A DNA stretch of 64,000 nt from sequence record PZ166176.1, one strand, 5' to 3'. The notes under the pieces were generated by a model. It had not been told where the DNA came from, ran no database searches, and saw nothing but the letters and a program-made list of their open reading frames with translations. Both the position numbers and the translations under genes were made by a program. Source of the DNA: a phage. Shown piece after piece: positions 25,338 to 58,429 of this stretch; the stretch's first letter is position 1; the number at the start of each line of letters is the position of its first letter.

Positions 25338-25505
25338 TTATACTTCTAAACGGAAAGTTTCTTTAGATACAAAATCGTATCCACCTTTTTCAAGCCAGTT
25401 ATTGTAAACCTCATCGGCTTGAGACTCTATCATAAAATACCGAGTGGTAACTTCGTCTCCGACAATACGCACAATTTTATAGCAAATCATGATACCATTT
25501 CCCAT
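25338..25505 (-). CDS. hypothetical small protein (55 aa, not in ORF track)
   Basis: My translation of the gap: MGNGIMICYKIVRIVGDEVTTRYFMIESQADEVYNNWLEKGGYDFVSKETFRLEV; GGAGGAAG RBS; TAATG overlap with the upstream gene; fills the gap exactly. Confidence 0.4.
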   Translation of the reverse strand: MGNGIMICYKIVRIVGDEVTTRYFMIESQADEVYNNWLEKGGYDFVSKETFRLEV

Positions 25506-25696
25506 TAATCTTCCTCCAGATCAATTTCATTGTAACAATGTATGCAGAAACCATCATTGTGCATATGTTGTTCATAAGACATATCTTTACCACAAGACCA
25601 ACAACGGATATCCCCATCGTCCCATTCACGTTCTTCTTCACCTTCAAATTCATCTGGTAGGTAAGGCATACCAAGACAATCTAAATCGTAATGCAT
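25505..25696 (-). CDS. small zinc-ribbon protein
   Basis: 63 aa with CWSCG...CIHC cysteine pairs; AGGAGG RBS. Confidence 0.5.
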   Translation of the reverse strand: MHYDLDCLGMPYLPDEFEGEEEREWDDGDIRCWSCGKDMSYEQHMHNDGFCIHCYNEIDLEED

Positions 25697-25703
25697 ATCT
25701 CCT

Positions 25704-25728
25704 CCTATAAAGGGGCAGAAGCCCCTTA
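25704..25728 (-). terminator. terminator candidate downstream of the DNA polymerase gene
   Basis: AGGGGC-AGAA-GCCCCT hairpin between 25745 and 25696; T-tract is weak. Confidence 0.4.
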
Positions 25729-25744
25729 TAAAACAATGAGTTAA

Positions 25745-28700
25745 CTAGTGACAGGACGCCCAGGAATTACCCACATCATACCCAGCAGTAAGCTGAACAT
25801 TAAGATTGTAAAATTCTCCAGCCTTAGTAACAGCTAAAGCAGCAAGTTCACCTGCCCGACTATAAGCTGTAAACCATCCACCTTTGGGAGATTCATGAAT
25901 GTTAGCCCAAATTTGCCCTGTCTCTTTTTCCTTATTATGCTTCCATTCTTCGACTTTAGCAAGGCATTCTTTATCAATTTTCTTTTGTTCTTCAGGATCG
26001 TCTACTTTCTTCCAACCTAATGATTCAGGTGAAAACCATTTAAATTCTACAAGGTTACGAGAAACTTCAAGCTGGGCTTCATCGTGATATGCAATCATTT
26101 GTTGCACGAAATCTTTATTCTTCCAGTCATCTTTAAAGAAGTCAACACTTAGCCCTTCTTCTTCGATCATGTCATCATAAATAACCATTGCACGTTTAGC
26201 ACAGATAACCCCACCGCTTTGGAACAGAGAGTTAAGAATCGCGTGAGCAGAACGAGTAGGAACCTTACGACCGTCAATACCCAAAACATATTGTTTACCA
26301 GTCTTAACCCAGAAATCGTTTAAACGTTCTTTAAGACGCGCCAATGGGAATGCAGCTTCCCAGAAAGCATCGAACACCAATTGCCCTGTAAACTTGTCGC
26401 TACCAATTGTTTTAGCAACCTTGTCGGCTTGTGCACCATAGGTAATACCATACTTAACAGATTTAGCAGGACTACGTTCAAATTTACGTCCAATAGTTTC
26501 AGTGATACGTTTTGCCATCATTGTGTGAACATCATTAGGTTTCTCTAACAACAGAGCGTTACAATATTCGTGTGGCTCCGGCTCGTACCGCCAACAGTTT
26601 CCTGTGATGGTAATGCAGTCTTTCTGACGCATGACCCACGTACCAAGTTCTGTTTGTGGACACCAAACATCCTCTACACCCCACTCTTCAATAGTCAAAC
26701 TTTGAACAGGAATGTGAGAGCGGTTAGTCAATGTTGCCACTTTTACTTTCTGCTCTTTTGTATTGAAAGCTACAGAGATATTGCCTCCATGCACCAGGTA
26801 CGAGGCAGTTAAAGCTGCTTCAAAAAGTTCACCTGGGTTCTGCGCCCAACGCCAAACAGGTTTTTGTTTATGTTCGTGCCAGTAACCATCTGCAATCAAG
26901 AAACCTTCCAAGAAAGCTACACGCTCGGCATGAGACATATTAACTACACGTTCTACCCACGGAACATCCCATTTACCTTGTTGAACAGAAGTTAAACTAT
27001 TTACCTGATCTTGTTCCATGTTAAATGGAGCATTACAAATAATGTTATCTCCTGTGCAAAGCTCGGCAGTTGTTCTGACTTTAGGCACATAAGTATTCCC
27101 TTTACTACGGGTATTAACATACCAACGGTGATCTGCTGTTGCACGGTAAGTGTGTGATTTCCCTTTAATCTCAAACGTCTTACTATTTTTATAGAAGACC
27201 TTACCTTTTACTTTAGTCCATTCTTTCAGACCTGTTTCAGCATTGTACCCTAAAATCTCATCCCCTTCCTTCAGGTCGTGATATCCTACCCAACCTTTAC
27301 GAGTCAAAGCTTGAGCATCCATCGGCACACAGTAATGCGATTCAATTTTTGCTTCCAAAGAGTCGAAGTCGTAGCCAATCTGGAAGTATTTAGGAACTTC
27401 TACACCAAACAAGTTACGCATCTCCCATCCAAACAAAGATGTGACACGAGGAATATTAGCTACAGATCTATGCTTCATACGAGAGGTTGCAGCATCACAT
27501 GTAGCGGCTGGGGTAGGAATACGCCCATCCGCCCTTACTGCGGCTAAGAAACCTTTATCGTATTCTTGATCTTCTTCATCTTCTTCCCAATCGGCACCGC
27601 CACCTAAAATAGAGTTCCTACGATGCTTATACGTTAAGTATTCTACAATCTGTGTAGCATAAGGAAACTTCTCACCCAAAGCTTGCAGGTTAGGACAAAT
27701 TTCTTTTTCCTGACCTTTGGTAAAACACGGGTTAGTCAATACTTTAAGACCGCGACCTTTACCTTTTGCTATACGCTCTTGAATCTTCCTTTCCAGGGTT
27801 TCCGGTGTGCACTCCAGATGATCACAACGATCCTGACAAAAATTAGAAGATAGGGTTTGCTCAACGTAAGCTCGAATACCTTTCTGAAGTTCTTCCTCGC
27901 TCTTTTTAATTTTGGTGCCAGATTTAAGCGTCAAGTCTTTATCTTTATATTCAGACGGTACCCAACCTAATCCTACGAGCCAGTTTTTAATATGGGTTGT
28001 ATCGTTCAATGTTGCAGGGATGTTAGGATCACATAGAGGCTCATCTGCTGCAACTGGTAGTTTCCACTCTTTCCCCAACATAACTAACCACCAATCGCCA
28101 TCCCTCTCTTCCAAATGACCATCATGTTTCTTAGCAAAATTGATCATATGGTTAGTTGGCTCTAAGTTCTTTTTAATTTGCAACTTAGGTGGAATAAAAG
28201 CCTTAAGATAACCTTTTGTTGCTGGTTTAGGTGGCAAAATAGGCTCAACGAGTAAACGAAGACGCTCCATTTCTGCATCCAAAAAAGCAAGGTTCTCTTC
28301 TGCTTGCTTCATGTTAAAAGCAAACCCACGGTGTTCCTGGCGTGTAATAATGTCTGCTACACGTTGTTCAAGTTCAAACGGACCTTCCCATTTATCATAA
28401 TCACCCCATTCTTCCATAAGGTAATTATATACGCTCGTATTGGCTTTGTTGTCATAGATACAGTAATAAAGCATGTCCGCAGCAAAAGTCTTAAATCGAT
28501 CCTCTTCTGGAATCTCTTTACGGAAATCTATTTTTACATCACCACCTGCCTTTCGAGAAAGTGCTGCCAAACTATGTCCTGATTTGCCCTCAATCTTTCG
28601 ATCTGGGTTTAACACTTTACTCAAAATCAAGGAGTCAATAAGTTTTACCTTATTTTTGCCCCACGTGTTATATTTAACACTGTAATCTAAGCCATAAAAC

Positions 28701-29077
28701 AGTTTTGTAGCCAACCAGTCGTAGTTGATACCGTTGTGAGCCACAGCCATTTCAACCAGATATTCAGGCTTATCTTTAAAATAACCTTCATGATTAATAA
28801 AGTCTGGGAAATCTTTTAGTTGAAAATGTGTGTAATCTTGCGCCACATACTCTTTAAGAACATATGTGTATTTGCCATCTGACTCTTCATAAGGACGCCC
28901 ATCAAAGATGTATTTAGGACCATCGTGGAAAGCTACTATTTCTCCTGTTTCATGGTTCTCTAAGACAATACAGTGCATTTGAAATGTGTCTTTGAGACGA
29001 TAAGGACTAGCTAAATAATCAATAGTGTCATTATTCAACAATCCGTTTGCTTCAATATCCCATGTAAACTTACTCAC
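25745..29077 (-). CDS. family A DNA polymerase (T7/Pol I-like) interrupted by an intein
   Basis: 1110 aa; exonuclease motif WDIEANGL; motif A YDFDSLEAKIESHY; motif B RSPAKSVKYGITYG; motif C YHDEAQLE; about 245 extra residues lie between motifs A and B. Confidence 0.85.
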   Translation of the reverse strand: MSKFTWDIEANGLLNNDTIDYLASPYRLKDTFQMHCIVLENHETGEIVAFHDGPKYIFDGRPYEESDGKYTYVLKEYVAQDYTHFQLKDFPDFINHEGYFKDKPEYLVEMAVAHNGINYDWLATKLFYGLDYSVKYNTWGKNKVKLIDSLILSKVLNPDRKIEGKSGHSLAALSRKAGGDVKIDFRKEIPEEDRFKTFAADMLYYCIYDNKANTSVYNYLMEEWGDYDKWEGPFELEQRVADIITRQEHRGFAFNMKQAEENLAFLDAEMERLRLLVEPILPPKPATKGYLKAFIPPKLQIKKNLEPTNHMINFAKKHDGHLEERDGDWWLVMLGKEWKLPVAADEPLCDPNIPATLNDTTHIKNWLVGLGWVPSEYKDKDLTLKSGTKIKKSEEELQKGIRAYVEQTLSSNFCQDRCDHLECTPETLERKIQERIAKGKGRGLKVLTNPCFTKGQEKEICPNLQALGEKFPYATQIVEYLTYKHRRNSILGGGADWEEDEEDQEYDKGFLAAVRADGRIPTPAATCDAATSRMKHRSVANIPRVTSLFGWEMRNLFGVEVPKYFQIGYDFDSLEAKIESHYCVPMDAQALTRKGWVGYHDLKEGDEILGYNAETGLKEWTKVKGKVFYKNSKTFEIKGKSHTYRATADHRWYVNTRSKGNTYVPKVRTTAELCTGDNIICNAPFNMEQDQVNSLTSVQQGKWDVPWVERVVNMSHAERVAFLEGFLIADGYWHEHKQKPVWRWAQNPGELFEAALTASYLVHGGNISVAFNTKEQKVKVATLTNRSHIPVQSLTIEEWGVEDVWCPQTELGTWVMRQKDCITITGNCWRYEPEPHEYCNALLLEKPNDVHTMMAKRITETIGRKFERSPAKSVKYGITYGAQADKVAKTIGSDKFTGQLVFDAFWEAAFPLARLKERLNDFWVKTGKQYVLGIDGRKVPTRSAHAILNSLFQSGGVICAKRAMVIYDDMIEEEGLSVDFFKDDWKNKDFVQQMIAYHDEAQLEVSRNLVEFKWFSPESLGWKKVDDPEEQKKIDKECLAKVEEWKHNKEKETGQIWANIHESPKGGWFTAYSRAGELAALAVTKAGEFYNLNVQLTAGYDVGNSWASCH
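26597..27331 (-). mobile_element. intein (Hint domain with LAGLIDADG-like motif) inside the DNA polymerase gene
   Basis: Residues 583-827: begins with Cys right after motif A, block-B-like TADH, FLEGFLIADGY (LAGLIDADG-like), ends ITGN followed by Cys +1; flanking sequence restores normal motif A to motif B spacing. Confidence 0.6.
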
Positions 29078-29871
29078 TATTCCTCCTTTCTAATGTTCTC
29101 CAGAACCCACTGAAGTTCTTTTAAACTTAAACTTCTTACTCCCGCAGTTTTACTAGCTTCAGCTTTAAGTAACGGGTAAGCCTCAATGATACGCGTTTTA
29201 AGATCAGAAGTCAAGGCTTTTAAAAAATAGGTAGATGCTTCAGATAAAGAATCTTCTTCTGATAACACTTTACCTGCACTTGCTCCCGCTCTCCTAACAG
29301 CTATATCGTAGTCTTTACTGTTACCTAATACGAACAGTCGATTCTCTCCTAAAACAACGGGAGAACGCTTCTCGTTGCGTTTAATCCATACTTGGAATAC
29401 ACAAGGAACATCCCAAGGTTCTCCATGAAGAATAAAAGATCCTTTTGGACATTCTTCTTCGTAAAGAAGATGCATATGGGGATTTAGTTTGTGTGCAAAA
29501 AAGATTTTTTGAAATGTGCGAGGCAAGATAAAACAAATACCACCTTCGTTATCCAGCATTTCAGCACAATGGTTAAAGAATTTAATGGCAAGACTAGCAT
29601 TTTTTCCAAATGGAGGATTACCGACAAAAGCAGTTACACTACCAACAGACTCAACAGATTGAGCTAAAAAATCTGCCTCAATACAATCTTCAAACTTAGG
29701 GTCAATATCAAAAGAAGTTATGTTTTTAAAACAAGAAGAGAAAGCTCCTTCTCCCGCAGATGGTTCTACGTAGTTAGCTTCCTCTCCAAAAATTTCTTTG
29801 ATCTTATCACATAAGAACCCCGCATAAGCGGGGTTAGTGTAATATTGATCAAGTGTGTTCAACTTGCTCAA
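29077..29871 (-). CDS. N6-adenine DNA methyltransferase (gamma-class, TaqI-like)
   Basis: DQYYTNP (target-base motif), VEPSAGEGAF (SAM-binding motif I) then NPPFG (motif IV) in gamma-class order. Confidence 0.75.
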   Translation of the reverse strand: MSKLNTLDQYYTNPAYAGFLCDKIKEIFGEEANYVEPSAGEGAFSSCFKNITSFDIDPKFEDCIEADFLAQSVESVGSVTAFVGNPPFGKNASLAIKFFNHCAEMLDNEGGICFILPRTFQKIFFAHKLNPHMHLLYEEECPKGSFILHGEPWDVPCVFQVWIKRNEKRSPVVLGENRLFVLGNSKDYDIAVRRAGASAGKVLSEEDSLSEASTYFLKALTSDLKTRIIEAYPLLKAEASKTAGVRSLSLKELQWVLENIRKEE

Positions 29872-29880
29872 TAGTCCTCC

Positions 29881-30312
29881 TTAGTTGTTAGCGAACTCAA
29901 TAGTGAGGTCAACTTTACCATCATCAGAAATAACCATGTTTTTAGTATTTTTAAAGATGATATCTACTTTACCTTCACTTACACGACAAAATGCAACACC
30001 ATCTGCAACTTTATCGATATAATATTTGTAAGAAAGAATACCCACTTTACTACGACCAGCACCTTTTGTGAAAGAAGGGCTTACATCGAAACGGAAACCT
30101 TTAGAAGAAACAACACGGTAAGAACGTCCAGTTGGGATATGTTCAATAACAGAAACATTGTTCTCAACAACTTTTACAGCAAACTCTTCAGGATGATCCT
30201 CAACAATCATATGTGGGATGGCAAATGCCAACGCTTGTTTGTGTTTAATAACACCAGCACCCAGAGCACCAGCAGCTTTAACTTTTGCATTCAGATCGAT
30301 TGTCATACGCAT
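29881..30312 (-). CDS. hypothetical protein
   Basis: 143 aa ORF with AGGAG RBS downstream of a sigma70-like promoter. Confidence 0.45.
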   Translation of the reverse strand: MRMTIDLNAKVKAAGALGAGVIKHKQALAFAIPHMIVEDHPEEFAVKVVENNVSVIEHIPTGRSYRVVSSKGFRFDVSPSFTKGAGRSKVGILSYKYYIDKVADGVAFCRVSEGKVDIIFKNTKNMVISDDGKVDLTIEFANN

Positions 30313-30345
30313 TTTTACTTCTCCTCTTGTTTGGTTGATGAGACA

Positions 30346-30374
30346 AGTATAAGTCCCTTCCGCAAAGTTGTCAA
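30346..30374 (-). promoter_or_regulatory. sigma70-like promoter (TTGACA-17 nt-TATACT)
   Basis: On the - strand: TTGACA, 17 nt spacer, TATACT, then AGGAG RBS and the ATG at 30312. Confidence 0.55.
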
Positions 30375-30380
30375 CAGGTA

Positions 30381-30406
30381 TTTTTAATAAAAGGGCCGAA
30401 GCCCTT
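30381..30406 (-). terminator. rho-independent terminator after primase-helicase
   Basis: GGGCTTCGGCCC hairpin overlapping the stop codon, followed on the - strand by TTTTATTAAAAAT. Confidence 0.6.
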
Positions 30407-32183
30407 AATAGTTGCTATCCGTAGGCAAATTAGCAGGATTGTTGAAATACTGCTCTTTGTCATGCAGAGTTGCAGTTCTAATGTCATAGTAAAACTGCCC
30501 TGCCGGACCAGTTTCCGAGAACTCACGGTTTTTTAGGATAAAGCAATGAGTCGTATTGCGTTCTACAGGGTCTTCAGCGGCTTTATCTCGTTCCAAAGCC
30601 AAGGTAATACCAGCACCTTTAGCCAAGAAACTACTACCCATTGCATCGTCCTCTGTTAAGTGTTCATTGCCACCATTAGCCGATTTCTTAACGTGTGAGA
30701 TGACGATAATAGTTATAGCATACTCTTTCATGATGCGCTTCAACCATGTTGCTAACTCTTCCTGGGCTTGAACATCCATACCAGAAAGCAAATCAGAATA
30801 AGGGTCGATAACAAGAATTGTTACTCCAAAATAGATGATCATCTCCAAAACTTTTTCTTTGATAGACTCCACATCTGCTCCACGATCATCACACACATAA
30901 AAACGTGGTGATCCATCTTCTCTTTCGTAAAAATCTAGGATTTTTTCTTTATTCTCTTCCAAGATTTGAAATTTCTCTTCCGGTGTTTTCCTGTGCAGAG
31001 GAATATGCAGGAACGAGGACAACAGGTTACGAGAGTATTTCTTATAAGTTGCTTCCAAGGACAGAATGCCGAGGGTATGTTCTGGGTGCGCAACAATAAT
31101 ATGTTTTGTGATCTCGTTCACCATCAAAGTTTTACCGATACTGGTCTTTGCTAGGATGACTGTAATCTCTTCCTCTACTAAACCACCACCCAGCATATTT
31201 GCAGCAACACGCATAAAAGGGGGCAAGGTAATCATCTTGGATTCCAAGCATTCTAATGCAGCTTCATACAAGACATTAGAAGCATAAACACCTGCTGGGG
31301 TGTATAGACGAGCACTCCAAAAAGCCTTTACGAAATCCTTTGCACGACCTTCTTCCAGATACTGATTGGCATCCTTAAGATCCATCTGCATACGGTAGAC
31401 TTTGTTACGAGGTAGCACCTTAACAATATTTTCAAATGCCTCATTACCTGCTTTGTCATTATCCATGCAAACAATAATCTTCTTAAATTTTTCAAAGAAA
31501 GGATATTGTGCCTGAACTTGTTTATACATACTGGTTTCACCAGTTGTGCCACTAACTACTGCTGGAAGTTCATATTTGTTGTCCAAGTTTTCAGACAGCA
31601 TTTGATAAGCTGCCAGAGCATCGTGTTCACCACCTGTAATTACCACAGTATGAGAACGGTCTGCAAAACGAATTTGTCCAAAAAGATCTACATCTTTACC
31701 TACTTGACCAATAGGTTTACTGAAATCTTTAGGATGAATACGACGCTTAAAACCAACCAATTCTTTACCGATGGTAGTTGGATATAAACAACTTTCTACT
31801 ACCATCTGATCCCCTTCCTGACGGTATTCATAACGAACACCATAGAAAGATGAAACTTTTTCTTTAATGCCTCGATAACCACGTGGGTTGGCTGATGTTT
31901 CTTGAACAATTTTACGATGAATCTGTTTATTAAATTCCGAACCCACAATCTCCTCCTCTTCTTCTAAAACTTCACCATTTTCTCGTAACCATTCTACGCT
32001 AGGAATAGTGTATTCACACGCAAAGCACTTAGCACCTTTATGCTCTCCATTAGAATCTAATCCATAAACCATCAGGTTATTACGAGAGCGATCCTTGCCA
32101 TTTTTCATGCAGCGCGGACAACCTGTATGCCCTTCCTTGCTAAGATCAACATCAAATCCATATTTAGTTATAATGTGCGACAC
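30405..32183 (-). CDS. bifunctional DNA primase/helicase (T7 gp4-like)
   Basis: N-terminal zinc finger (CPRC...CFAC), TOPRIM-like IVCMDNDKAGNEAF, DnaB-type Walker A (ILAKTSIGKT) and Walker B (LVIDPYSDL). Confidence 0.8.
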   Translation of the reverse strand: MSHIITKYGFDVDLSKEGHTGCPRCMKNGKDRSRNNLMVYGLDSNGEHKGAKCFACEYTIPSVEWLRENGEVLEEEEEIVGSEFNKQIHRKIVQETSANPRGYRGIKEKVSSFYGVRYEYRQEGDQMVVESCLYPTTIGKELVGFKRRIHPKDFSKPIGQVGKDVDLFGQIRFADRSHTVVITGGEHDALAAYQMLSENLDNKYELPAVVSGTTGETSMYKQVQAQYPFFEKFKKIIVCMDNDKAGNEAFENIVKVLPRNKVYRMQMDLKDANQYLEEGRAKDFVKAFWSARLYTPAGVYASNVLYEAALECLESKMITLPPFMRVAANMLGGGLVEEEITVILAKTSIGKTLMVNEITKHIIVAHPEHTLGILSLEATYKKYSRNLLSSFLHIPLHRKTPEEKFQILEENKEKILDFYEREDGSPRFYVCDDRGADVESIKEKVLEMIIYFGVTILVIDPYSDLLSGMDVQAQEELATWLKRIMKEYAITIIVISHVKKSANGGNEHLTEDDAMGSSFLAKGAGITLALERDKAAEDPVERNTTHCFILKNREFSETGPAGQFYYDIRTATLHDKEQYFNNPANLPTDSNY

Positions 32184-32195
32184 TTTGTTCTCCTG

Positions 32196-32474
32196 TTAAA
32201 ATGGTTCGTTAGTCTCCATCATATATTCTGCTTCTAGTTCTTCCATATGCTTTCTAAATTGGAAAGCAATTTCTGCTACAGTTACATTTAAATCTTTTTC
32301 AAAAACTTCTGTAGAGCCTTCATAAAAACGAATACCGTCAATTAAAAGCCCTCCGTGGTAATCCCAATCACTTTCACGAGAAAGCGGGTTAGGCTCTTCA
32401 TAATAGTAATCCACCTCCACAACTAAGGCTTTCCCGTTACGAGTGGTGTATTCAAAATCAAAAGTGTTAATCAT
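32196..32474 (-). CDS. hypothetical protein
   Basis: 92 aa acidic ORF. Confidence 0.4.
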   Translation of the reverse strand: MINTFDFEYTTRNGKALVVEVDYYYEEPNPLSRESDWDYHGGLLIDGIRFYEGSTEVFEKDLNVTVAEIAFQFRKHMEELEAEYMMETNEPF

Positions 32475-33418: not shown

Positions 33419-33425
33419 ACTTCAC

Positions 33426-35046: not shown

Positions 35047-35054
35047 TTTCTCTC

Positions 35055-35618: not shown

Positions 35619-35634
35619 TCTCCCCTCCGTTATA

Positions 35635-35826
35635 TTAACTGTCGGCTACAATCCCGCGTTTAATCATTTCCTGTTGGATTTGGATGACACGATCTCGTGC
35701 TTCCATGTATTCTTTAAAAGATTCTTGAAGATGGTCACGAGCTACGTCTCGTAGCTTAATCAGCTTGTCGTTTGTCACTTCTTGAAGAGAGATTTCGCCA
35801 GTTTCATTGGTCCCAAGCGTTTTCAT
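35635..35826 (-). CDS. hypothetical small protein
   Basis: 63 aa charged helical ORF. Confidence 0.4.
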   Translation of the reverse strand: MKTLGTNETGEISLQEVTNDKLIKLRDVARDHLQESFKEYMEARDRVIQIQQEMIKRGIVADS

Positions 35827-36318: not shown

Positions 36319-36319
36319 T

Positions 36320-47430: not shown

Positions 47431-47445
47431 TACTTATCTCCTCAC

Positions 47446-47637: not shown

Positions 47638-47650
47638 GAAACCTCCTAAG

Positions 47651-49932: not shown

Positions 49933-49994
49933 TATTAATCCTTATTTTGTGAGTAGAACTATTATTCTACCTCTTCCAACCGAAAAAAGCTTTG

Positions 49995-50028
49995 AGGAAA
50001 ATCAAAAAAGGCGCAAAGTGCGCCTTTA
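49995..50028 (-). terminator. rho-independent terminator
   Basis: AAAGGCGCA-CTTT-GCGCCTTT hairpin followed on the - strand by TTTTTTGATTTT, between the stop at 50033 and nrdD. Confidence 0.65.
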
Positions 50029-50032
50029 AGTT

Positions 50033-51382
50033 TTATTGTTTGGAGAGGAATTGTCTTCCCATGATCTTACCGTTCTTTACAGCGGTCCCATCATGTCCAT
50101 TATAATCCCAAGTTCCATCGATATTACGCAAGAAGCTATCACGAACAGTGTAGGCTTTACCGTTCTCTATTTTACTTTCTTCCACAATGATCGCCATAAC
50201 AAGCTTATTTTCAATTTCGGTAGTAACCGATTCTTTGATACCCTCTGTAACTTCACGATCATATTGGATATAAACTCGCTCCTCAGTCACTTGCACGTCT
50301 ACCACATTTTTAAATGTGTAGGTCTGTTGTGTAGTGTAGAGGACACGAACGACACTCTTCTTACCTACTGGCGGCTTCTGACGACGTTTGCGGTAACGTG
50401 GAGACGGGTTAAGTTTAATATAACCTACAATGTCTGATCCATCTCCAGAGTGGCTCCAATAAAGTGTCTCTGCCGACAAACCTTTTCCTTGGTCCCCATT
50501 TCGAAAAAGAACATCAACAGGACCATCACAAGGGCGTTTACCTCCGATGTGGGCTTGGTATTTTGCTGTTCTTGGGAGAACAAAATATTCTTCAATCTGC
50601 CATTCACTATCGTATTTCTCCCATTCAAAGTGGTTGGCTTTGCATACTTCTAAAACACCATTTTTGTAACGGACTTGAACAAAGTCCTCACAAGGTTGAA
50701 TACCTGTATTAGGAATATAGGTAGGCTCTGTGTCTTCTGGTTCAAAAGTCTCTTTTTGTTGTTCCACATCTTCCACTTTTCTTACATGTTTAGTATAAAA
50801 CATATCTTTAAACTCCTGTGCTTCAACCTCAACTGCAAATTCATGTTCTCTGACAGCCGGAGGCACAAGGCTTCCACACTCAAGATGTAGGGCATCCAGA
50901 CCTGCCATTTTATCGTAAAAGATAACTTTTCGATACTTCTTACCGTCTTCTGGGATAGCAGGGTCTACTCGTTTAAGACGGGAAGCATCGTTTTTAGTCC
51001 AAAAACTCTTCCCTGTTGTATTATTGAAAGTAGTAATCATTTCTCCAATTTCTTCTTCAGAAAGGTTACTAGTGTCTGTGTAAACATCTTCAATTTTTAG
51101 CATTTTAGTTTTCTTAAAAATTAAATCTAGCATTGCATCTCCTGTAAAACGTAGTTCATTATCTCCTACTGTCGGCTCTCCAGAAAATTCATCGGTCCCG
51201 ACTGTGTGACAGATGTATGGAAAATTTGTGCAACCGTGTAAAAGAGCATATTGTCCTGTAAGTTTAGGATCTGTCTCTTTAGTCCAACCATATGCAATCT
51301 CAATAGCTTTGCAAAGCCTATCGAACAAGCCCCGATTGTTTGCCGCTGTTACCAAATCTTGCTTATGTGCATATACATTCAT
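50033..51382 (-). CDS. hypothetical protein
   Basis: 449 aa ORF; no confident motif. Confidence 0.5.
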   Translation of the reverse strand: MNVYAHKQDLVTAANNRGLFDRLCKAIEIAYGWTKETDPKLTGQYALLHGCTNFPYICHTVGTDEFSGEPTVGDNELRFTGDAMLDLIFKKTKMLKIEDVYTDTSNLSEEEIGEMITTFNNTTGKSFWTKNDASRLKRVDPAIPEDGKKYRKVIFYDKMAGLDALHLECGSLVPPAVREHEFAVEVEAQEFKDMFYTKHVRKVEDVEQQKETFEPEDTEPTYIPNTGIQPCEDFVQVRYKNGVLEVCKANHFEWEKYDSEWQIEEYFVLPRTAKYQAHIGGKRPCDGPVDVLFRNGDQGKGLSAETLYWSHSGDGSDIVGYIKLNPSPRYRKRRQKPPVGKKSVVRVLYTTQQTYTFKNVVDVQVTEERVYIQYDREVTEGIKESVTTEIENKLVMAIIVEESKIENGKAYTVRDSFLRNIDGTWDYNGHDGTAVKNGKIMGRQFLSKQ

Positions 51383-51933
51383 AATAACCCTCCTCGTTTT
51401 ATTGCAATAGATGCCCTAGGCTCTGCGATACCAGTGGCGTATAAATATGGATGACCTTGTGGAGAAGTTCTCATCCCAAACGAACCTAATTCTAACCCAT
51501 ACATATCTTCCACGTCAAGACCAATATCTGTCTCTATGATTTGAGTTTGAACTTTGTAATACGTCCAAAAGAAATAGCGCATAGTTTCGGCATATTCTTT
51601 GACGGACGCTCCTGGATAAAACTCAATAATTTCCAACTTTAAGAAAATGTTAAAATGAGCATCATCTAACTCTTCTTCTGTTCGGTAGCAAGGTGTTAGA
51701 GCCATATAAGGATGATCTGTTGAAAATTCAAACCCATCTTTCTCCATCTGGAGGAAAGACTGCTCTGCACTGGCTACGTAGAACTTACCATTAGGATGCC
51801 CCAAGGGGCGATCCTCTTTACCTTCTGGTAATGTATATGCAAGGATATCCGCATCTACAAGATAAGGGACTTCCAACATCTCCGCAAATCGCCCGTAGTA
51901 ATCAATAGCTTGAGCAATAACAGCTACGTTCAT
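51379..51933 (-). CDS. hypothetical protein
   Basis: 184 aa ORF, ATGA-coupled. Confidence 0.45.
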   Translation of the reverse strand: MNVAVIAQAIDYYGRFAEMLEVPYLVDADILAYTLPEGKEDRPLGHPNGKFYVASAEQSFLQMEKDGFEFSTDHPYMALTPCYRTEEELDDAHFNIFLKLEIIEFYPGASVKEYAETMRYFFWTYYKVQTQIIETDIGLDVEDMYGLELGSFGMRTSPQGHPYLYATGIAEPRASIAIKRGGLL

Positions 51934-52181
51934 GATCTTCCTCCTGTGCGGAAAGCGCGTTTAGTAATGTTGGACATAATGATTAAGTCTTGTAAAGTCA
52001 TATCTGGGAACTGTTGTTCTAAAACTCCCTCGACAGCACCTATAATATCTGATAATTCCACAAGTTGCATTATTTTGCAATCCTGTTCAACAGCATCAAA
52101 AAGTTCTTCTACTTCCTCTTTAATCTTTTCTATGCTGCCATAAGGTTGTTTCTTAATGTCTGTTATGTGATACCCCGCCAT
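51930..52181 (-). CDS. hypothetical protein
   Basis: 83 aa acidic helical ORF. Confidence 0.4.
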   Translation of the reverse strand: MAGYHITDIKKQPYGSIEKIKEEVEELFDAVEQDCKIMQLVELSDIIGAVEGVLEQQFPDMTLQDLIIMSNITKRAFRTGGRS

Positions 52182-53774
52182 TTAACGATCCTCTCTGATT
52201 TGATTAATCTTACGAGCAAGGGCAGCTATAAGCTTATCTTCTTCGGATACAGGAGCCGTGCTCTTACCTAAACGATGCATGTCTAGAATCTCTTGAACAG
52301 TCCGGTTCCATTGTAGACATTTAATACAACGTGTATGTGCAACATACAGAAGATTTCGTTCTGATTCTTCAAGACCTACCCATTCACCCTTCTTATCATA
52401 ATTAGAAGGGAAGTCATTTGCAACAATAACCTGATCCCATTCCAAACCTTTTGATTTGTGGGCTGTAGTTAAAGTAACTTTAGCCGTTGGAGAGTTACGG
52501 TGCATACGTAAAGTGTATGCAATATTATTAGCTTTACCAGAAACAACAATGTTTAAAAGTCGTTTTGCATCAGGATCTGATTCTGCACACTCTACAAATT
52601 CTTCCCAAGAAGTGTAAGGTAGAACTGTCTCATGCTTAACTTTGTCCAAATCACCTCTACGTAAAGCATTAACACTATCAACCATAGAAATGAAATCTTT
52701 GGTATCTACGTTAATAATAATCTCTTCTCCGTTAGCGATTCGATCCATAGCTTCGAGCAACAGGGTCAAATTCTTACGGAAAATAATGGTGTAAGGTTTA
52801 CTATAATCTACCACATCAGAATGAAAACTTCCAGTGACAGTATCATAACCTTTGCCTACCAGCGGATGCTTCAGAGGTGAGCGATCAGAAAGGATCGCAT
52901 TAGCAATGTCCGCAACTTTAGGACCAAAGCGAAAACAAGCTGTCAGAGGCAACTCAACCCCATATGTAGCCGTTTGCTTCATCATGTTCTGGCTTCCACG
53001 GAACTGATAAATACTCTGAAATTCATCACCCACAACAACAATACGTTTAGCCGATTTAGCATTGCGAAGGATAGACAGGAATGCAGGGTTAACATCCTGG
53101 AATTCATCTCCAAAAATAATATCGTATCCTAAATCTTCTTTACTCAATTCAAAGAGTTTCACATAGGTGTCATGAGTCATAATGGTTTCTGATTTAGGAT
53201 CAATACGCTCACGCCAAAGTTGCTTCGCATATTTAACAACTTCGTTAATAAGTTTTTGTTCGTTGATGTTCTTACGTTTAAGATCTGACATATACACTTT
53301 AGGAAAATGTTTATGTCCAATATGTTCATCGTCAGAAAACTCATATTTAGCTAAAGTTTGTTTTACCATTAACCCGATCATTGCACGAGTCAGTAGCACT
53401 TTACCATTCTTATCAATCAAATTCTGAATCTTGAATTTTTTGGCAATCTCACTACCAGTTCCAGCTACGTTAACATATTGACCTTCTGGACGAGACAATT
53501 TGTGTCGAAGGTTTTGTGGAAGACGCTGGTAACAGATTGAATGTAGCGTTCGGCACATAACGTTAGGCGGCATTTTACGTCGAGCTTCCTCTGCCATACT
53601 TTTGTTAAACGCCAAATATAGAATACTATCATTTGTGCCATTAGCCAACATATATAGTGTTGACGTTTTACCTGATCCAGATTTAGCTTGAATTGTAACG
53701 AAACGATTTTCTTTATACCCGCTTTCAATAGCGTATTGTTCCTCGGTAGGTGTAAAACTCAATTGTGTAGACAC
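52182..53774 (-). CDS. UvrD/Rep-family (SF1) DNA helicase
   Basis: 530 aa; Walker A AKSGSGKTST and motif II IIFGDEFQDVN. Confidence 0.7.
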   Translation of the reverse strand: MSTQLSFTPTEEQYAIESGYKENRFVTIQAKSGSGKTSTLYMLANGTNDSILYLAFNKSMAEEARRKMPPNVMCRTLHSICYQRLPQNLRHKLSRPEGQYVNVAGTGSEIAKKFKIQNLIDKNGKVLLTRAMIGLMVKQTLAKYEFSDDEHIGHKHFPKVYMSDLKRKNINEQKLINEVVKYAKQLWRERIDPKSETIMTHDTYVKLFELSKEDLGYDIIFGDEFQDVNPAFLSILRNAKSAKRIVVVGDEFQSIYQFRGSQNMMKQTATYGVELPLTACFRFGPKVADIANAILSDRSPLKHPLVGKGYDTVTGSFHSDVVDYSKPYTIIFRKNLTLLLEAMDRIANGEEIIINVDTKDFISMVDSVNALRRGDLDKVKHETVLPYTSWEEFVECAESDPDAKRLLNIVVSGKANNIAYTLRMHRNSPTAKVTLTTAHKSKGLEWDQVIVANDFPSNYDKKGEWVGLEESERNLLYVAHTRCIKCLQWNRTVQEILDMHRLGKSTAPVSEEDKLIAALARKINQIREDR

Positions 53775-53788
53775 GTATTTCTCCTCTC

Positions 53789-54304
53789 TTAATAAAAACT
53801 CTTGACAATCCTCATCATTTCCTTAGCTCTGCTGGCATAAGGTTCTTTTAGATTAGGTGGCAAATGTGCATTAATGTACCCCATTTGTTTTTCCCATGTC
53901 CACTTATCTTTAAATCTTGGCATGGTGTCTCCTGCTAAACTGTTTTCTTTTCGTGTTTGAATGATCCAATTACATGGAAAATGCACACCACCTTTACGGA
54001 AGGGAATATAATGTCCCAATGTGAATGCCTTATTGTTCTTTAAACGTCCAGCTAAATTAAGATTAACAATAAGACTACGAAACACGTAGTATTGATAAAG
54101 ATTGTCAACAGTATATACAGAGTAGTATGCTCTAAGTGCATTATCTCTACTAAGATTACCAACATCCAAACTGCACCAGTTTAAATTACTTGGATCGTAG
54201 TTGTGATTATCAATCCATTCTTCTCTTTCCTCAAATTCTGCATTAACAGCAGACTGCCCTGCTGTAGATACAAAAAGAGAATTTGCATCAAAGAACATAC
54301 TCAC
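53789..54304 (-). CDS. hypothetical protein
   Basis: 171 aa ORF. Confidence 0.45.
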   Translation of the reverse strand: MSMFFDANSLFVSTAGQSAVNAEFEEREEWIDNHNYDPSNLNWCSLDVGNLSRDNALRAYYSVYTVDNLYQYYVFRSLIVNLNLAGRLKNNKAFTLGHYIPFRKGGVHFPCNWIIQTRKENSLAGDTMPRFKDKWTWEKQMGYINAHLPPNLKEPYASRAKEMMRIVKSFY

Positions 54305-54311
54305 TCCCCCT

Positions 54312-54722
54312 TTAGTTTACATCGTTTAGAGCATTACCAATCTTTAAGATAATAACATCATTAAGAGCTTCTTCTCCATTAAGACCAGAGAAAGCAGGAG
54401 TAACGAAAGTTACCATATAATAATGGTCTTCTTGTAGGATTGCGATAACGCCGTCTAGTTTAACATCTCCTGTGAAACGAAAAACTTTCAACTTTTGTTC
54501 TAAAGGAAGATCTCCTTCAACATTTAAAACCATATCTCCGACACCAAACTTTTCTGCCCCGATGTAGATGTAAGCTTGGTCATCTTTTTTATGATAATAC
54601 AATGTTGCTTGTTTGTCTTGTAGTGTTGTGATACCAAACACATCTACATCAATAATATTTTTCAAAAATTCTCCTCCCAAATCCAATAATTGTCTACATA
54701 AGTAGGATGCCTTTTGTCCCAC
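54312..54722 (-). CDS. hypothetical protein
   Basis: 136 aa ORF; start uncertain (track start overlaps the upstream gene by 61 nt). Confidence 0.4.
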   Translation of the reverse strand: MGQKASYLCRQLLDLGGEFLKNIIDVDVFGITTLQDKQATLYYHKKDDQAYIYIGAEKFGVGDMVLNVEGDLPLEQKLKVFRFTGDVKLDGVIAILQEDHYYMVTFVTPAFSGLNGEEALNDVIILKIGNALNDVN

Positions 54723-55030
54723 TCTTTTCTAGCCCAAGCTACGGCTGCTACCAATACATCTCCATGACAAGGTTGAGGCGAGCAGAAGCAAACTAAATCT
54801 TTTCCTTCTAACTCTAATAAATCTTCAAGAGTGATCTTACCACAACGAATTTGCTCCCACAACCACTCTTTATACCTTTGTATGGTTGATCCTCGTGGTT
54901 CATCATCTTTTAACTTAAAAGGATTTGCAAACTTAGAGGCTTTTAGTCCCATATGTGGCATTGCTCTACCAATATAAACAGCACCCTCTGGGATTGTTTT
55001 GCCTAAATGGTAAAAGTTTAATACCTTCAT
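54662..55030 (-). CDS. conserved small protein with Cys/His motif (possibly DUF4326-like)
   Basis: 122 aa; KFANPF...YKEWLWEQI...GKDLVCFCSPQPCHGDVL. Confidence 0.45.
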   Translation of the reverse strand: MKVLNFYHLGKTIPEGAVYIGRAMPHMGLKASKFANPFKLKDDEPRGSTIQRYKEWLWEQIRCGKITLEDLLELEGKDLVCFCSPQPCHGDVLVAAVAWARKEWDKRHPTYVDNYWIWEENF

Positions 55031-55031
55031 A

Positions 55032-55394
55032 TTAACCTAAACACATACGTGCGATCAGACCCTGGATGAGTTTATCTGCTTCTTCGCGATCATAGTCGGT
55101 ATCTTCTATACCACCATCTTCGTCACGATAAACTTTACCTTCTAGGTACCCAGCATCGATCAAACCAATAATCAAATCGAACTGCCAGCAAGAGTTACCG
55201 AAAGGGCGTTTTCCACTGAAGCTATCTTCTTCTTCCCAAAGTGTAGAGAGCAGTCGTCTGAAATATTCACGCACAGTAACAGTGCCAAGATCATCGTCTT
55301 CAAAAACAACATCTAAAGCATCCGGTTCAGCTTTCTCTACAACAGGCACATAACGTTGACCATTAATAACAACATCTACGATTGTTTCTCTCAT
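55032..55394 (-). CDS. hypothetical acidic protein
   Basis: 120 aa ORF. Confidence 0.45.
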   Translation of the reverse strand: MRETIVDVVINGQRYVPVVEKAEPDALDVVFEDDDLGTVTVREYFRRLLSTLWEEEDSFSGKRPFGNSCWQFDLIIGLIDAGYLEGKVYRDEDGGIEDTDYDREEADKLIQGLIARMCLG

Positions 55395-55753
55395 TTTTCC
55401 TCCTTTTTGTATTCAATGAACATATCTGCATAGTAAGCTTTACGTTCTTCAAATTTAGCAGGGTTTACCACAATGAACAACACCTTTCTATTGTCTTGTG
55501 GTTCTTTGACTGTAATATATAAATCTTTTGTGCAATAGAAACCTGTGGCTTTGTAAGCGTCACCCCAATTATCCACTCCACGATCTATACGATCAAACTT
55601 GCAGTTATACTTTTTATCATCCGCCTGGTAGACAGCTTCACCACCATACCAAGTGAAGAATTGGCTACCTTCCACCCCAATCTTGAAACCATCACGAGCG
55701 GCTGTAGCATTGGTGGCAATCATCAACATCAGGACACAAAGTAGCTTTTTCAT
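55391..55753 (-). CDS. secreted/periplasmic protein
   Basis: 120 aa; N-terminal signal peptide MKKLLCVLMLMIATNATAA. Confidence 0.5.
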   Translation of the reverse strand: MKKLLCVLMLMIATNATAARDGFKIGVEGSQFFTWYGGEAVYQADDKKYNCKFDRIDRGVDNWGDAYKATGFYCTKDLYITVKEPQDNRKVLFIVVNPAKFEERKAYYADMFIEYKKEEK

Positions 55754-56059
55754 TTAGAATTCCTCTTCAGTCTTCTGTCGGTTTTTGAAGAATACTACGT
55801 CATATACCTCTCCGTAACCATCGTTTACACAGAACATAATAAAACGATCATCTTCTGCTGTTGGTGCGCGATGTTCAAGTTCAAAACTTTCAATAAAACC
55901 GCGTGAATTTACGTAGTAGATTTCATCCTCACCAGAGAACATCCAATCCCTGTCTATCAGATAGAAAGCTAAACTCACAGGCGACAACTCATCCTTCACA
56001 GAATCATTGTACAGCATGTGGGCTGCAACTGCCAAACTTAAAGTCGTATTGTGCTGCAT
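55754..56059 (-). CDS. hypothetical protein (tandem paralogue A)
   Basis: 101 aa; shares LSLAV, YELEYRAP-x-EDD, IMF/YxVN-GxGE-x-VVF with 56059..56370. Confidence 0.45.
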   Translation of the reverse strand: MQHNTTLSLAVAAHMLYNDSVKDELSPVSLAFYLIDRDWMFSGEDEIYYVNSRGFIESFELEHRAPTAEDDRFIMFCVNDGYGEVYDVVFFKNRQKTEEEF

Positions 56060-56370
56060 TACATCTCCTCGTCGGACTTCAAGGCTTTAGAGAATACTAC
56101 ATTAAACGTTTCACCGCAACCATTATTAACATAATACATGATGTAATTGTCATCTTCGTCTACAGGCGCACGATACTCCAGTTCATAACTGTATAAATTA
56201 GAGTCACTTGTGCAACCCTGTGGATACCAAAAGTAAAGTTCACCACAAGATTCTACCCACTTAAGACCAGTTCTATCTTCAAACACCAATGTAGAAGGAT
56301 TTTCTGAATCTTTCACAGCTTCTTCATACTGTTGATGTACCATGACTGCTAATGATAATGTACTCATCAC
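56059..56370 (-). CDS. hypothetical protein (tandem paralogue B)
   Basis: 103 aa; paralogue of 55754..56059. Confidence 0.45.
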   Translation of the reverse strand: MMSTLSLAVMVHQQYEEAVKDSENPSTLVFEDRTGLKWVESCGELYFWYPQGCTSDSNLYSYELEYRAPVDEDDNYIMYYVNNGCGETFNVVFSKALKSDEEM

Positions 56371-56570
56371 GCCTCCAAATAGTGTTTACAAATGACAAAA
56401 CGCCATGTTTGTTTATAATAGTCTCTTTTTTCAAGAGCCTCTTTGTAAGAGGGTATACGTTGCGACAGAAGCATCCATTCACAATCTGCACCCATTCTTC
56501 CATAAAGCGCGTAACGGATGTTACTTTGTTTATCTCCCATAAATGCCTCCTTAATCTTGTTTACAAGCAT
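56367..56570 (-). CDS. hypothetical small protein
   Basis: 67 aa ORF. Confidence 0.4.
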   Translation of the reverse strand: MLVNKIKEAFMGDKQSNIRYALYGRMGADCEWMLLSQRIPSYKEALEKRDYYKQTWRFVICKHYLEA

Positions 56571-56583
56571 ACCCTCTAATTAG

Positions 56584-56781
56584 TTACACTTTTTCCCAAG
56601 TACCAAAAGCACAGGAAGGGTAGATTCCAACTTGAGGGTTTCCGTTATCATCTTTGAAAGTAAAACTGTTGTTGTCTTTATCAAGAACTGTAGAATAAAT
56701 CTTACCAACAGTAACGCAGTTGGAAGCTTGACCCAGTTCAGTGAGAGTAAGACATTTCATTTTCTGTTTCTTTGTAGCCAT
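56584..56781 (-). CDS. hypothetical small protein
   Basis: 65 aa ORF with AAGGAG RBS, downstream of a promoter candidate. Confidence 0.45.
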   Translation of the reverse strand: MATKKQKMKCLTLTELGQASNCVTVGKIYSTVLDKDNNSFTFKDDNGNPQVGIYPSCAFGTWEKV

Positions 56782-56811
56782 TTATAAAATCTCCTTAGTA
56801 AGTGAATCTTT

Positions 56812-56841
56812 ATTCTACACAAAGAGCTTTGCACATGTCAA
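56812..56841 (-). promoter_or_regulatory. sigma70-like promoter candidate (TTGACA-18 nt-TAGAAT)
   Basis: On the - strand: TTGACA, 18 nt, TAGAAT, about 30 nt upstream of the ATG at 56781. Confidence 0.45.
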
Positions 56842-56863
56842 GTAACTCTTTGTCAGATTAGTC

Positions 56864-57133
56864 TTAATGATTAGTGATGTTGATGACAATCTTAGTTTCA
56901 ACCTTAGCCCAACAGTAATCTGCTTCATTAAAACGACTAGTCACAATGTATTCTCCTGCACGAGAACCTGTTAAGCACACTGCACCTGTATCTGTAGCTA
57001 AGTAGTAGTCCCGTTCTTGTTCACTTACTTCTGAATCGTAGTAGTAGAAAACAGACATAGGTTCAATTTCAGATAAACGGTATAACTTTGGAACAGGGGA
57101 TTTCTCGATAAACTCAACAGAAGTTTTACTCAT
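56864..57133 (-). CDS. hypothetical small protein
   Basis: 89 aa ORF. Confidence 0.4.
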   Translation of the reverse strand: MSKTSVEFIEKSPVPKLYRLSEIEPMSVFYYYDSEVSEQERDYYLATDTGAVCLTGSRAGEYIVTSRFNEADYCWAKVETKIVINITNH

Positions 57134-57366
57134 TTGTTTTCTCCTAGATCTAAACTAATTAAGAAGTCACGAAGGATGATCATTTGTTCTGTAGACAATG
57201 ATAATACACCTTCTCCATAAATATCACCAGACCATTCAGCAGTTAGATCTAGTGTACCAGTACCAGGAAACCAATCAACAGTGATCTGATTACCATTAGA
57301 GTCAGGTAGTATTTCACTGACTAACATAACACACTCTCCTATTATTGTTCTTGATCTTACGATCAT
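57130..57366 (-). CDS. hypothetical small protein
   Basis: 78 aa ORF. Confidence 0.4.
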   Translation of the reverse strand: MIVRSRTIIGECVMLVSEILPDSNGNQITVDWFPGTGTLDLTAEWSGDIYGEGVLSLSTEQMIILRDFLISLDLGENK

Positions 57367-57503
57367 CTACCGATAAGAACAAGTACTTAAATCTCTGTTC
57401 TTCGAACATCTAACGATAGAGATTAATCTATTACATAATCTATACTCGCTATCGCTCGACCCTTCGGGGTTAGGGTAGCATATTTTTTGAAAAAAGTCAA
57501 CAC
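57367..57503 (-). promoter_or_regulatory. longest intergenic region of the early block, with dyad and direct repeats
   Basis: About 137 nt non-coding; repeated GATCATCTACCG / GAACATCTAACG, inverted GATAAGAAC / GTTCTTCGA, TTGACT-like -35 and a small CCC-TTCG-GGG hairpin. Confidence 0.4.
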
Positions 57504-57821
57504 TTATTTTTTGGTAAGTAGATAAATCAATTGTTCACCTGCTTCTGGTGCATATAGTGCTTTAGTATCGAAGTCAAAGAAGTGAGTGACTCCTGTTACT
57601 TTGGATGCATGAATAGATAATCGTGCAAGCTTAAGCAGATTATCCATTTCCGCAATCTTTGCACGAAATACTGCACGTGTAGTGTCAAAAGCTGCATGTG
57701 GCATGTATTTACGATTTAGACTACTACGTTTAAATTTACGATAATCTGCAATGATCCTGTTACGTTCTTTGTTCAAATGTTTTACCAGTGCAGTATATAC
57801 ATGTGGTTCTTTGTTAGCCAT
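57504..57821 (-). CDS. hypothetical basic protein
   Basis: Start moved to the internal ATG (MANKEPHVY); Lys/Arg-rich. Confidence 0.4.
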   Translation of the reverse strand: MANKEPHVYTALVKHLNKERNRIIADYRKFKRSSLNRKYMPHAAFDTTRAVFRAKIAEMDNLLKLARLSIHASKVTGVTHFFDFDTKALYAPEAGEQLIYLLTKK

Positions 57822-58026
57822 TGTTAATCTCCTCTTCATATGTTGGTAGTGCATGGTATGCGATCACAGGTGCCAAGTCAAAATAAAAATGACCATTGAT
57901 AACAGCTATCGTGCCATTGCGTGTTTTGTTAACTTCACAGAATCCCTTCTTGCCGTTTGCCATGATTACAAGCCACTCTCCGATAGGAACATCCTCGGTA
58001 CCAGATACTTTAATCCATCCACTCAC
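57814..58026 (-). CDS. hypothetical small protein
   Basis: 70 aa ORF. Confidence 0.4.
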   Translation of the reverse strand: MSGWIKVSGTEDVPIGEWLVIMANGKKGFCEVNKTRNGTIAVINGHFYFDLAPVIAYHALPTYEEEINNG

Positions 58027-58283
58027 TTTACTTCCCCTTTGTAATCGGACACTATACCAGGTCTTACTTTTGCCTTAAGATGTTTCAACTCTGCCATAGG
58101 AGTTGCCACTTGTATAAGGTTAATAATTTCAACCTCGTAGATAGTATACTCATAACCCGCATACTTCCCGATGGAATGCAGGTATTTGATAGCATGTTCA
58201 GGTGAATCTGCTTCAACATACCCCAAATCTTTTGTAGTGCGGCCTTCACAGTCGCCTTCTGTAGTTACGTGATAAAGTGTCAT
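58023..58283 (-). CDS. hypothetical small protein
   Basis: 86 aa ORF. Confidence 0.4.
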   Translation of the reverse strand: MTLYHVTTEGDCEGRTTKDLGYVEADSPEHAIKYLHSIGKYAGYEYTIYEVEIINLIQVATPMAELKHLKAKVRPGIVSDYKGEVK

Positions 58284-58429
58284 AAAACCTCCTCATAGTA
58301 AGGTAAAGCCTTGATCAGTTGTTCTGAAGTGCCATTTTGCACCCACGTAACACCCTTGTCAAGAGAAACATACCCTTTCTTATTGATAAATTTACGGAGA
58401 CAACCAGTGAACTTGTTTTTGTAGATCAT
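58280..58429 (-). CDS. hypothetical small protein (49 aa, not in ORF track)
   Basis: My translation: MIYKNKFTGCLRKFINKKGYVSLDKGVTWVQNGTSEQLIKALPYYEEVL; ATGA overlaps at both ends. Confidence 0.4.
   Translation of the reverse strand: MIYKNKFTGCLRKFINKKGYVSLDKGVTWVQNGTSEQLIKALPYYEEVL

Follow-up and report, generated by a model that had tools for sequence, protein, structure and literature searches.

Four open reading frames (ORFs) of fewer than 60 codons, which we call ORF1 to ORF4, lie in a 64,000-nucleotide stretch of phage DNA (record PZ166176.1; hereafter the window, meaning this whole stretch), at places that had appeared as gaps between longer ORFs. We are highly confident that these four ORFs are real, conserved and selected short protein-coding genes of a phAPEC8-like phage, set in polycistronic operons. 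An earlier sequence-only reading of the window had proposed that the gaps are filled by genuine genes below 60 codons, and conservation, the ratio of non-synonymous to synonymous substitution rates (dN/dS), codon usage and Shine-Dalgarno (SD) sites support this proposal; the mechanical ORF list contains all four exactly where it placed them, each starting with ATG (Table 1). The gaps themselves are a product of the 60-codon threshold with which that reading displayed its ORFs: the four are missing from its track because of this cut-off, and public annotations already call them.

Evidence that the four ORFs are genes

The window is, by nucleotide identity, that of a phAPEC8-like coliphage of the genus Phapecoctavirus (Stephanstirmvirinae); a 7-kb query from the region aligned over its full length, at 98-99% identity, with the Escherichia phage ukendt, the Klebsiella phage ZCKP1, ESCO5 and about 60 other phAPEC8-like myoviruses. 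For our analysis, we used a curated map of 73 genes spanning positions 23136..63853, tblastn searches of 50,697 phage records, in which the records counted cover at least 80% of the query, and comparisons with phiWec190 and phiWec179, two relatives that show 81-82% DNA identity across the ORF1 region.

When the sequence of each gap was shuffled, an ATG-started ORF filling the gap as completely as the observed one arose in only 0.1-1.5% of the shuffles. The codon-usage score, a log-likelihood for which the window's long genes served as training set, is highest in the called frame for all four ORFs (0.14-0.54 per codon, against at most 0.04 in the best other frame), and the 25 other genes of less than 100 amino acids all behave in the same way. 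Homologs were found by tblastn in 71 records for ORF1, 177 for ORF2, 225 for ORF3 and 71 for ORF4, and all four frames can be read without interruption from the same start in phAPEC8, phiWec190 and phiWec179. The dN/dS values, calculated by the Nei-Gojobori method (NG86) between the window and the phiWec phages, are 0.06-0.09 for ORF2, 0.07-0.08 for ORF3 and 0.27-0.28 for ORF4; for ORF1, the comparison with phiWec190 gives 25.8 synonymous and 11.2 non-synonymous differences, with a dN of 0.09 and a saturated dS. The values for the four ORFs fall within the range of the neighbouring genes (0.01-0.39). Together, the shuffles, the codon usage and the dN/dS values rule out chance ORFs.

Some observations weigh against this conclusion. 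The SD-like site of ORF3 is a 4-mer only, the weakest of the four. Because ORF4 is evolving quickly (46% identity, dN 0.40), the case for its being coding leans on its conserved length and hydrophobic pattern more than on its sequence. ORF1 is interrupted in ZCKP1 (locus at about 1376..1543) by a nonsense change from GGA to TGA at codon 16, and in SKA64 (401..570) a 1-nucleotide deletion in an A5 run changes its last 15 residues. Literature searches found no transcriptome, proteome or ribosome-profiling study of the four genes. The sequence-only reading had looked to frameshifts or absence in close relatives as the sign that the ORFs are not genes; they are kept, and the two breaks in ORF1, out of 71 records, are a marginal departure, which suggests either that ORF1 is dispensable or that those two records are in error.

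Translation signals, junctions and coding density

The ribosome-binding sites had been described as good. SD-like sites do lie 5-8 nucleotides upstream of all four starts (GGAGG for ORF1, GGAGGA for ORF2, AAGG/GGAA for ORF3 and AGGAG for ORF4), with ORF3 having the weaker site. A further claim, that the starts and stops overlap the flanking genes, is correct for five of the eight junctions and fails at the stop of ORF1 and at both ends of ORF4. At the start of ORF1, one A serves both as the last base of the upstream gene's TAA and as the first of the ATG (TAATG), and the TAA of ORF1 itself is followed by a 10-nucleotide spacer, GGAGAAAACA, which carries the SD of the next gene and precedes the next ATG. 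ORF2 has TAATG at its start and an 8-nucleotide overlap, ATGTTTAA, at its stop, and both junctions of ORF3 are ATGA. ORF4 overlaps neither neighbour; its spacers measure 9 nucleotides upstream and 11 nucleotides downstream, with an SD in each. Such overlaps are the normal style of this genome, since 13 of the 71 same-strand junctions in the 73-gene map are ATGA and another 10 are one-base overlaps.

In the mechanism that we propose, ribosomes would be recruited by the four ORFs' own SD sites, which lie within the 3' end of the preceding gene or directly behind it. The stop/start overlaps (ATGA, TAATG) would permit translational coupling, an arrangement shared with about 40% of the junctions of this genome, and where a start among the four has no overlap, translation would be driven by its own SD.

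The description of the region as essentially 100 percent coding is overstated, because 96.7% of 23136..63853 is coding (95.1% without the four ORFs) and thirteen gaps of at least 30 nucleotides are left. None of these thirteen gaps contains an SD-led ORF; most have a GC-rich, T-run-bearing hairpin or a TTGACA-type promoter, or the two together, and the residual 3% or so of non-coding DNA is, by its predicted terminator and promoter elements, regulatory. Scanning the window against Rfam and for tRNAs gave no hits. The term "early block" also had to be narrowed. Three of the four ORFs (ORF1, ORF2 and ORF3) belong to a minus-strand block running from about 58869 down to about 23136. Names transferred from the ZCKP1 and phAPEC8 records place in it a DNA polymerase, a DNA methyltransferase, a primase/helicase, four glycosyltransferases, a SleB-like endolysin, TelA/TerC/TerE-like proteins, an anaerobic ribonucleotide reductase and a UvrD-type helicase, besides many hypothetical proteins. 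The block thus combines replication, nucleotide-metabolism and lysis genes with small accessory genes and is not purely early.

Table 1. Positions in the window of the four short genes and of the other features described in the text.
Feature	Position	Strand	Remarks
ORF1	25338..25505	-	55 aa, ATG start
ORF2	39880..40053	-	57 aa, ATG start
ORF3	58280..58429	-	49 aa, ATG start
ORF4	60897..61061	+	54 aa, ATG start
Gene below 60 codons, phAPEC8_00233 orthologue	56367..56540	-	57 aa from an ATG with SD; mechanical ORF 67 aa
Gene below 60 codons, phAPEC8_00246 orthologue	59933..60109	+	58 aa, two predicted membrane helices
Gene below 60 codons, phAPEC8_00249 orthologue	60723..60887	+	54 aa, soluble, immediately upstream of ORF4
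81-aa ORF with N-terminal membrane helix/anchor	42937..43182	-	ATGA overlap with upstream gene
TerE-like	36941..37543	-	name from ESCO13, ZCKP1 and phAPEC8 records
TelA-like	40247..41359	-	name from ESCO13, ZCKP1 and phAPEC8 records
TerC-like	43572..44546	-	name from ESCO13, ZCKP1 and phAPEC8 records
Divergent intergenic region with sigma70-like promoters	58870..58983	both	consensus matches only
Gaps with promoter-like sites	24478..24522, 30313..30404, 44547..44625, 56782..56863, 57328..57503, 58870..58983	-	consensus match

Annotation in public records and family assignments

The four ORFs are already known, having stood in public records as hypothetical proteins since 2012. The phAPEC8 record of that year (JX561091) annotates all of them, as phAPEC8_00185, phAPEC8_00207, phAPEC8_00240 and phAPEC8_00250, and ESCO13 does so with ribosome-binding-site features, as ESCO13_00194, ESCO13_00215, ESCO13_00249 and ESCO13_00258 for ORF1 to ORF4. 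The ZCKP1 record annotates three of the four; ORF1 is left out in ZCKP1 alone because of its stop at codon 16. The orthologues in phAPEC8, ESCO13 and ZCKP1 have the same positions, lengths and junctions as in the window, with protein identities of 96-100%, except that ORF1 is truncated in ZCKP1 and that ORF3 lies in a locally mosaic segment.

Each of the four matches a PHROGs family of unknown function: phrog_22931 for ORF1 (E 5e-43), phrog_1997 for ORF2 (E 1e-25), phrog_2381 for ORF3 (E 3e-11) and phrog_27459 for ORF4 (E 1e-38). Searches of Pfam, NCBIfam and PADLOC also returned weak hits to P22_portal, GAD-like, AnkX_ins, DUF6358, dnd_assoc_4 and JetA, which are far below the cut-offs and were disregarded.

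ORF2, a probable member of the DUF7167 family

ORF2 is located downstream of a TelA-like gene, within a large metabolic and replication block. Its product contains 18 acidic and 2 basic residues, which gives a net charge of -16 over 57 amino acids. Against the Pfam family DUF7167 (PF23768) it scores 23.5 bits (E 6e-5) and just misses the cut-off of 24.4 bits. When a profile was built from ORF2 together with homologs from Jerseyvirus, Kochikohdavirus and Stx phages, it retrieved 106 proteins; most of them are tagged PF23768, such tagged proteins being matched at E values of about 1e-22, and some are named "DUF7167 family protein" by their source. The alignment of ORF2 with DUF7167/phrog_1997 runs from end to end, and the near-invariant residues I8, E9, T10, G14, E22, D26, A36, F40, C44 and Y46 are common to both. 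On this profile evidence, ORF2 is probably an acidic alpha/beta mini-domain of the DUF7167 family, a family without known function. Cys15 and Cys17 of ORF2 are not conserved in the family, which rules out zinc binding by its CGC motif.

The AlphaFold2 (AF2) model of ORF2, built from a 65-sequence alignment, consists of a beta-hairpin and a helix with a predicted local distance difference test (pLDDT) score of 74, and a Foldseek search of the PDB with this model gave no match below E 0.8. Single-sequence word-index protein searches with ORF2 and ORF3 found close relatives only. Literature searches on DUF7167, and on functional work with Phapecoctavirus early genes, yielded nothing relevant.

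The 177 phage records with ORF2 homologs include Jerseyvirus, Kochikohdavirus and Stx2a phages, and homologs are also present in many prophages. In Jerseyvirus the gene is located between the replicative helicase gene and the genes for DUF2800 and DNA polymerase; in Enterococcus Kochikohdavirus it is part of an early small-gene block; in E. coli prophages it is found after O/P-like replication genes; and some homologs are placed in nin-like accessory regions. Enterobacter lambdoid prophages show the gene order N - (Ral) - P22_Y8K6 - DUF7167 - cIII - Kil - RecT, so that the DUF7167 genes share an operon segment with the lambda-type early-left genes ral, cIII and kil, to which they are also similar in size (40-100 amino acids). 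The likeness to ral, cIII and kil is positional only, with no sequence or structural similarity; of the circumstantial evidence for an early accessory role, this context is the strongest.

ORF2 is enclosed by a tellurite-resistance-like cluster on the minus strand (36941..44546), in which hypothetical proteins are interspersed among the TerE-, TelA- and TerC-like genes.

ORF3, a small protein with a predicted Asp-box-like hairpin

ORF3 is the second gene of a leftward operon that begins in the divergent intergenic region, after a TTGACA-16-TAAGAT promoter-like site, and encodes a basic protein (isoelectric point, pI, 9.4). Its homologs occupy 225 phage records, which include Justusliebigvirus, rV5-like, Klebsiella, Cronobacter and jumbo phages. 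The protein contains the sequence SLDKGVTW, in which S22, D24, G26, T28 and W29 match the Asp-box consensus S-x-D-x-G-x-T-W perfectly; in its longer form this consensus is given as X-X-S-X-D-X-G-X-T-W-X (PMC2716378). Residues 20-30 (YVSLDKGVTWV) fit the consensus of the Asp-box (BNR) hairpin found in the propeller blades of GH74, GH33 and Vps10 proteins.

A hidden Markov model (HMM) search of 1.84 billion representative proteins returned about 20 small relatives of ORF3, together with many large repeat proteins that are matched only through ORF3 residues 20-35. In an alignment of 24 sequences, W29, L42 and Y45 are invariant and Y3, N5, F7, R12, L38, P43 and Y44 are nearly so; an LPYY motif is conserved at the C terminus. 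About 14 of the 24 sequences have the complete Asp-box, and of its residues only the tryptophan never varies. The AF2 model of ORF3 is confident (pLDDT 93.3; predicted template modelling score, pTM, 0.71) and comprises five short strands and one helix, with strands 18-22 and 30-32 flanking the motif. This confident model predicts a compact beta-meander fold that includes an Asp-box-like hairpin.

The fold neighbours of ORF3 among BFVD models are small proteins, themselves uncharacterised, from phages 4MG, Ro1, RaK2 and others. In the PDB, its best-ranked neighbours are individual Asp-box propeller blades (GH74 enzymes, SorCS2, sialidases and Ycf48), with root-mean-square deviations of 0.9-2 A over 30-34 residues and E values of 2-6. 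Because these Foldseek E values exceed 2, the likeness to propellers is a resemblance and not membership. Unlike the Asp-box propellers, ORF3 is a free-standing single unit of 49 amino acids, without a repeat, and does not match Pfam BNR. That it is a true BNR-repeat protein is ruled out by the single unit, the missing Pfam match and the variability of the motif.

Intact ORF3 homologs are left unannotated in the jumbo phage phAPEC6 (MK817115, 3001..3138) and in phiWec179 (at about 5377..5520); some public records therefore miss short genes, although the type record of this genus includes them. The genome is locally mosaic around the divergent promoters (58023..58429 and 60723..60887): ORF3 is 100% identical to its counterparts in phAPEC8 and UP17 and 90-92% identical to those in ZCKP1 and ukendt, otherwise the closest genomes, and in ESCO13 and the phiWec phages an extra 107-amino-acid gene follows ORF3.

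ORF1 and ORF4, two narrowly distributed genes

The product of ORF1 is soluble, with a pI of 4.65, and its gene shares an operon with those for DNA polymerase and tRNA nucleotidyltransferase, between which it is located. The 71 records that carry it are confined to phAPEC8-like phages and the phiWec group, and a scan of IMG/VR added only two further relatives. Beyond phrog_22931, ORF1 has no family match in Pfam, NCBIfam or PADLOC. It is restricted to the genus and probably dispensable.

ORF4 comes eighth among the genes of the rightward operon. Its product is hydrophobic, with a grand average of hydropathy (GRAVY) of 1.79 and a maximum of 2.45 over a 19-residue Kyte-Doolittle window, and two membrane helices are predicted in it, with PLVGEYCSE between them; it is a predicted two-helix peptide of the inner membrane. 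The phiWec group has homologs of 46-47% identity in which the length and the hydrophobic pattern are kept. The codon-usage score of ORF4 is 0.14 in frame and at most -0.21 in the other frames. The IMG/VR scan added no relatives of ORF4, which is likewise narrowly distributed and probably dispensable.

Possible roles of the products

The four products are small and mutually unrelated, and no function is assigned to them. Because they have only 49-57 amino acids, binding or modulation is more likely than catalysis, and we propose accessory host-interaction roles in which ORF1 to ORF3 would bind host or phage proteins and ORF4 would act at the inner membrane. ORF3 and ORF4 may be transcribed early, by the host RNA polymerase, from the divergent region; ORF3 in particular is probably made early.

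The sequence-only reading had pointed to host takeover and anti-defence. One or more of the four, with ORF2 and ORF3 as the likeliest candidates, may be an early factor of this kind that binds a host protein and inhibits it; this is plausible as a prior, not as a result, and we consider it only a tentative possibility. It would agree with the position of ORF3 as second gene behind a sigma70-like promoter and with its retention in large virulent enterobacterial phages of several families. It would agree, too, with the charge of ORF2, as DNA-mimic inhibitors are likewise strongly acidic, and with the occurrence of ORF2 homologs between ral and cIII/kil in lambdoid early-left operons, in nin-like regions and in the early block of Kochikohdavirus. 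However, none of the four resembles a characterised inhibitor in Pfam, PHROGs, NCBIfam or PADLOC, none of which is a dedicated anti-defence library, and the PDB and BFVD fold searches, made for ORF2 and ORF3 only, gave only non-significant matches or matches of unknown function. ORF1 and ORF2 stand amid replication, nucleotide-metabolism and Ter-like genes and not at the start of an operon, and neighbourhood is in any case weak evidence for genes so small and mobile. Somewhat more doubtful still is the stronger proposal that ORF2 or ORF3 founds an uncharacterised anti-defence or host-takeover family, in which ORF2 would inhibit a nucleic-acid enzyme of the host in a DNA-mimic-like way and ORF3 would be a small early binder of a host target or a propeller-like homo-oligomer. 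If this were true, the function of ORF2 or ORF3 would transfer to hundreds of phages and prophages, as both are conserved far beyond the genus.

A role directed at the phage itself, with ORF1 and ORF2 as small accessory subunits or adaptors of the replication and nucleotide-metabolism machinery, appears improbable to us. The place of ORF1 between the polymerase and tRNA nucleotidyltransferase genes, the Jerseyvirus gene order and the E. coli prophage homologs that follow O/P-like genes would all agree with it, but ORF1 is broken in two otherwise viable phages (ZCKP1 and SKA64), and DUF7167 is found both in early-left operons away from replication genes and beside non-homologous replication systems, so a specific replisome partner is not likely. 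Lastly, the idea that the ORFs are chance frames or spacers for the passage of ribosomes between the flanking genes, with an irrelevant peptide, could appeal to the stop/start overlaps, which suggest coupling, and to very short proteins without known function, but it is already contradicted, and to us close to excluded, by the low dN/dS with its excess of synonymous changes, the ORF2 and ORF3 homologs in unrelated phage genomes with different neighbours, the confident model of ORF3 and the absence at ORF4 of any overlap to couple.

As conserved, selected genes, the four are a correct but ordinary finding that matters little in itself. Displaying ORFs from 60 codons upwards conceals about 10% of the region's genes (7 of 73), which standard gene callers and public records include; three of these seven were not on the list of the sequence-only reading. 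ORF2 (177 phage records and many prophages) and ORF3 (225 records and a confident fold) are widespread, strongly constrained and uncharacterised, and are reasonable candidates for functional screens.

Other short genes, promoter-like sites and a polymerase insert

The three further genes below 60 codons are orthologues of phAPEC8 genes (Table 1). The product of the phAPEC8_00233 orthologue shows 68-74% identity in relatives, and the phAPEC8_00249 orthologue is absent from phiWec190 and phiWec179. The 81-amino-acid ORF listed with them covers a gap of 108 nucleotides in the phAPEC8 and ZCKP1 annotations; it is annotated in ESCO13, as ESCO13_00221, and its product is about 70% identical to that of the phiWec190 gene BDU13777. 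It overlaps by 134 nucleotides the annotated downstream ORF of 170 amino acids (42558..43070, minus strand), which has a lipoprotein signal, MKKLALILIGCIFLTAC. The true start of the lipoprotein ORF is probably at 42995, which still leaves an overlap of 59 nucleotides.

In the divergent intergenic region, the match upstream of the ORF3 operon is TTGACA-16-TAAGAT with an extended TG (58927..58900, minus strand), and the plus-strand candidates upstream of the ORF4 operon are weaker; all are consensus matches only. Near-consensus TTGACA -35 boxes with a spaced -10 recur in the minus-strand gaps, twice as GTGTTGAC. Some of these gaps, for example 30313..30404, also have a GC-rich hairpin with a T-run, and the site at 30374..30346 coincides with a promoter annotated in phAPEC8. 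The distribution of these matches suggests many host-polymerase promoters along the whole minus-strand block.

The DNA polymerase gene (25745..29077) encodes 1110 amino acids in the window and in ZCKP1, as against 865 in phAPEC8, ESCO13 and the phiWec phages. A single in-frame insert of 245 amino acids (residues 583-827; 26597..27331, minus strand) accounts for the extra length; its first residue is Cys and its last two are Gly-Asn, followed by Cys. The insert has weak matches to Intein_splicing (E 0.007), to LAGLIDADG_3 (E 0.15) and, in the PDB, to the VMA and RecA inteins, and probably represents an intein whose homing-endonuclease domain has degenerated.

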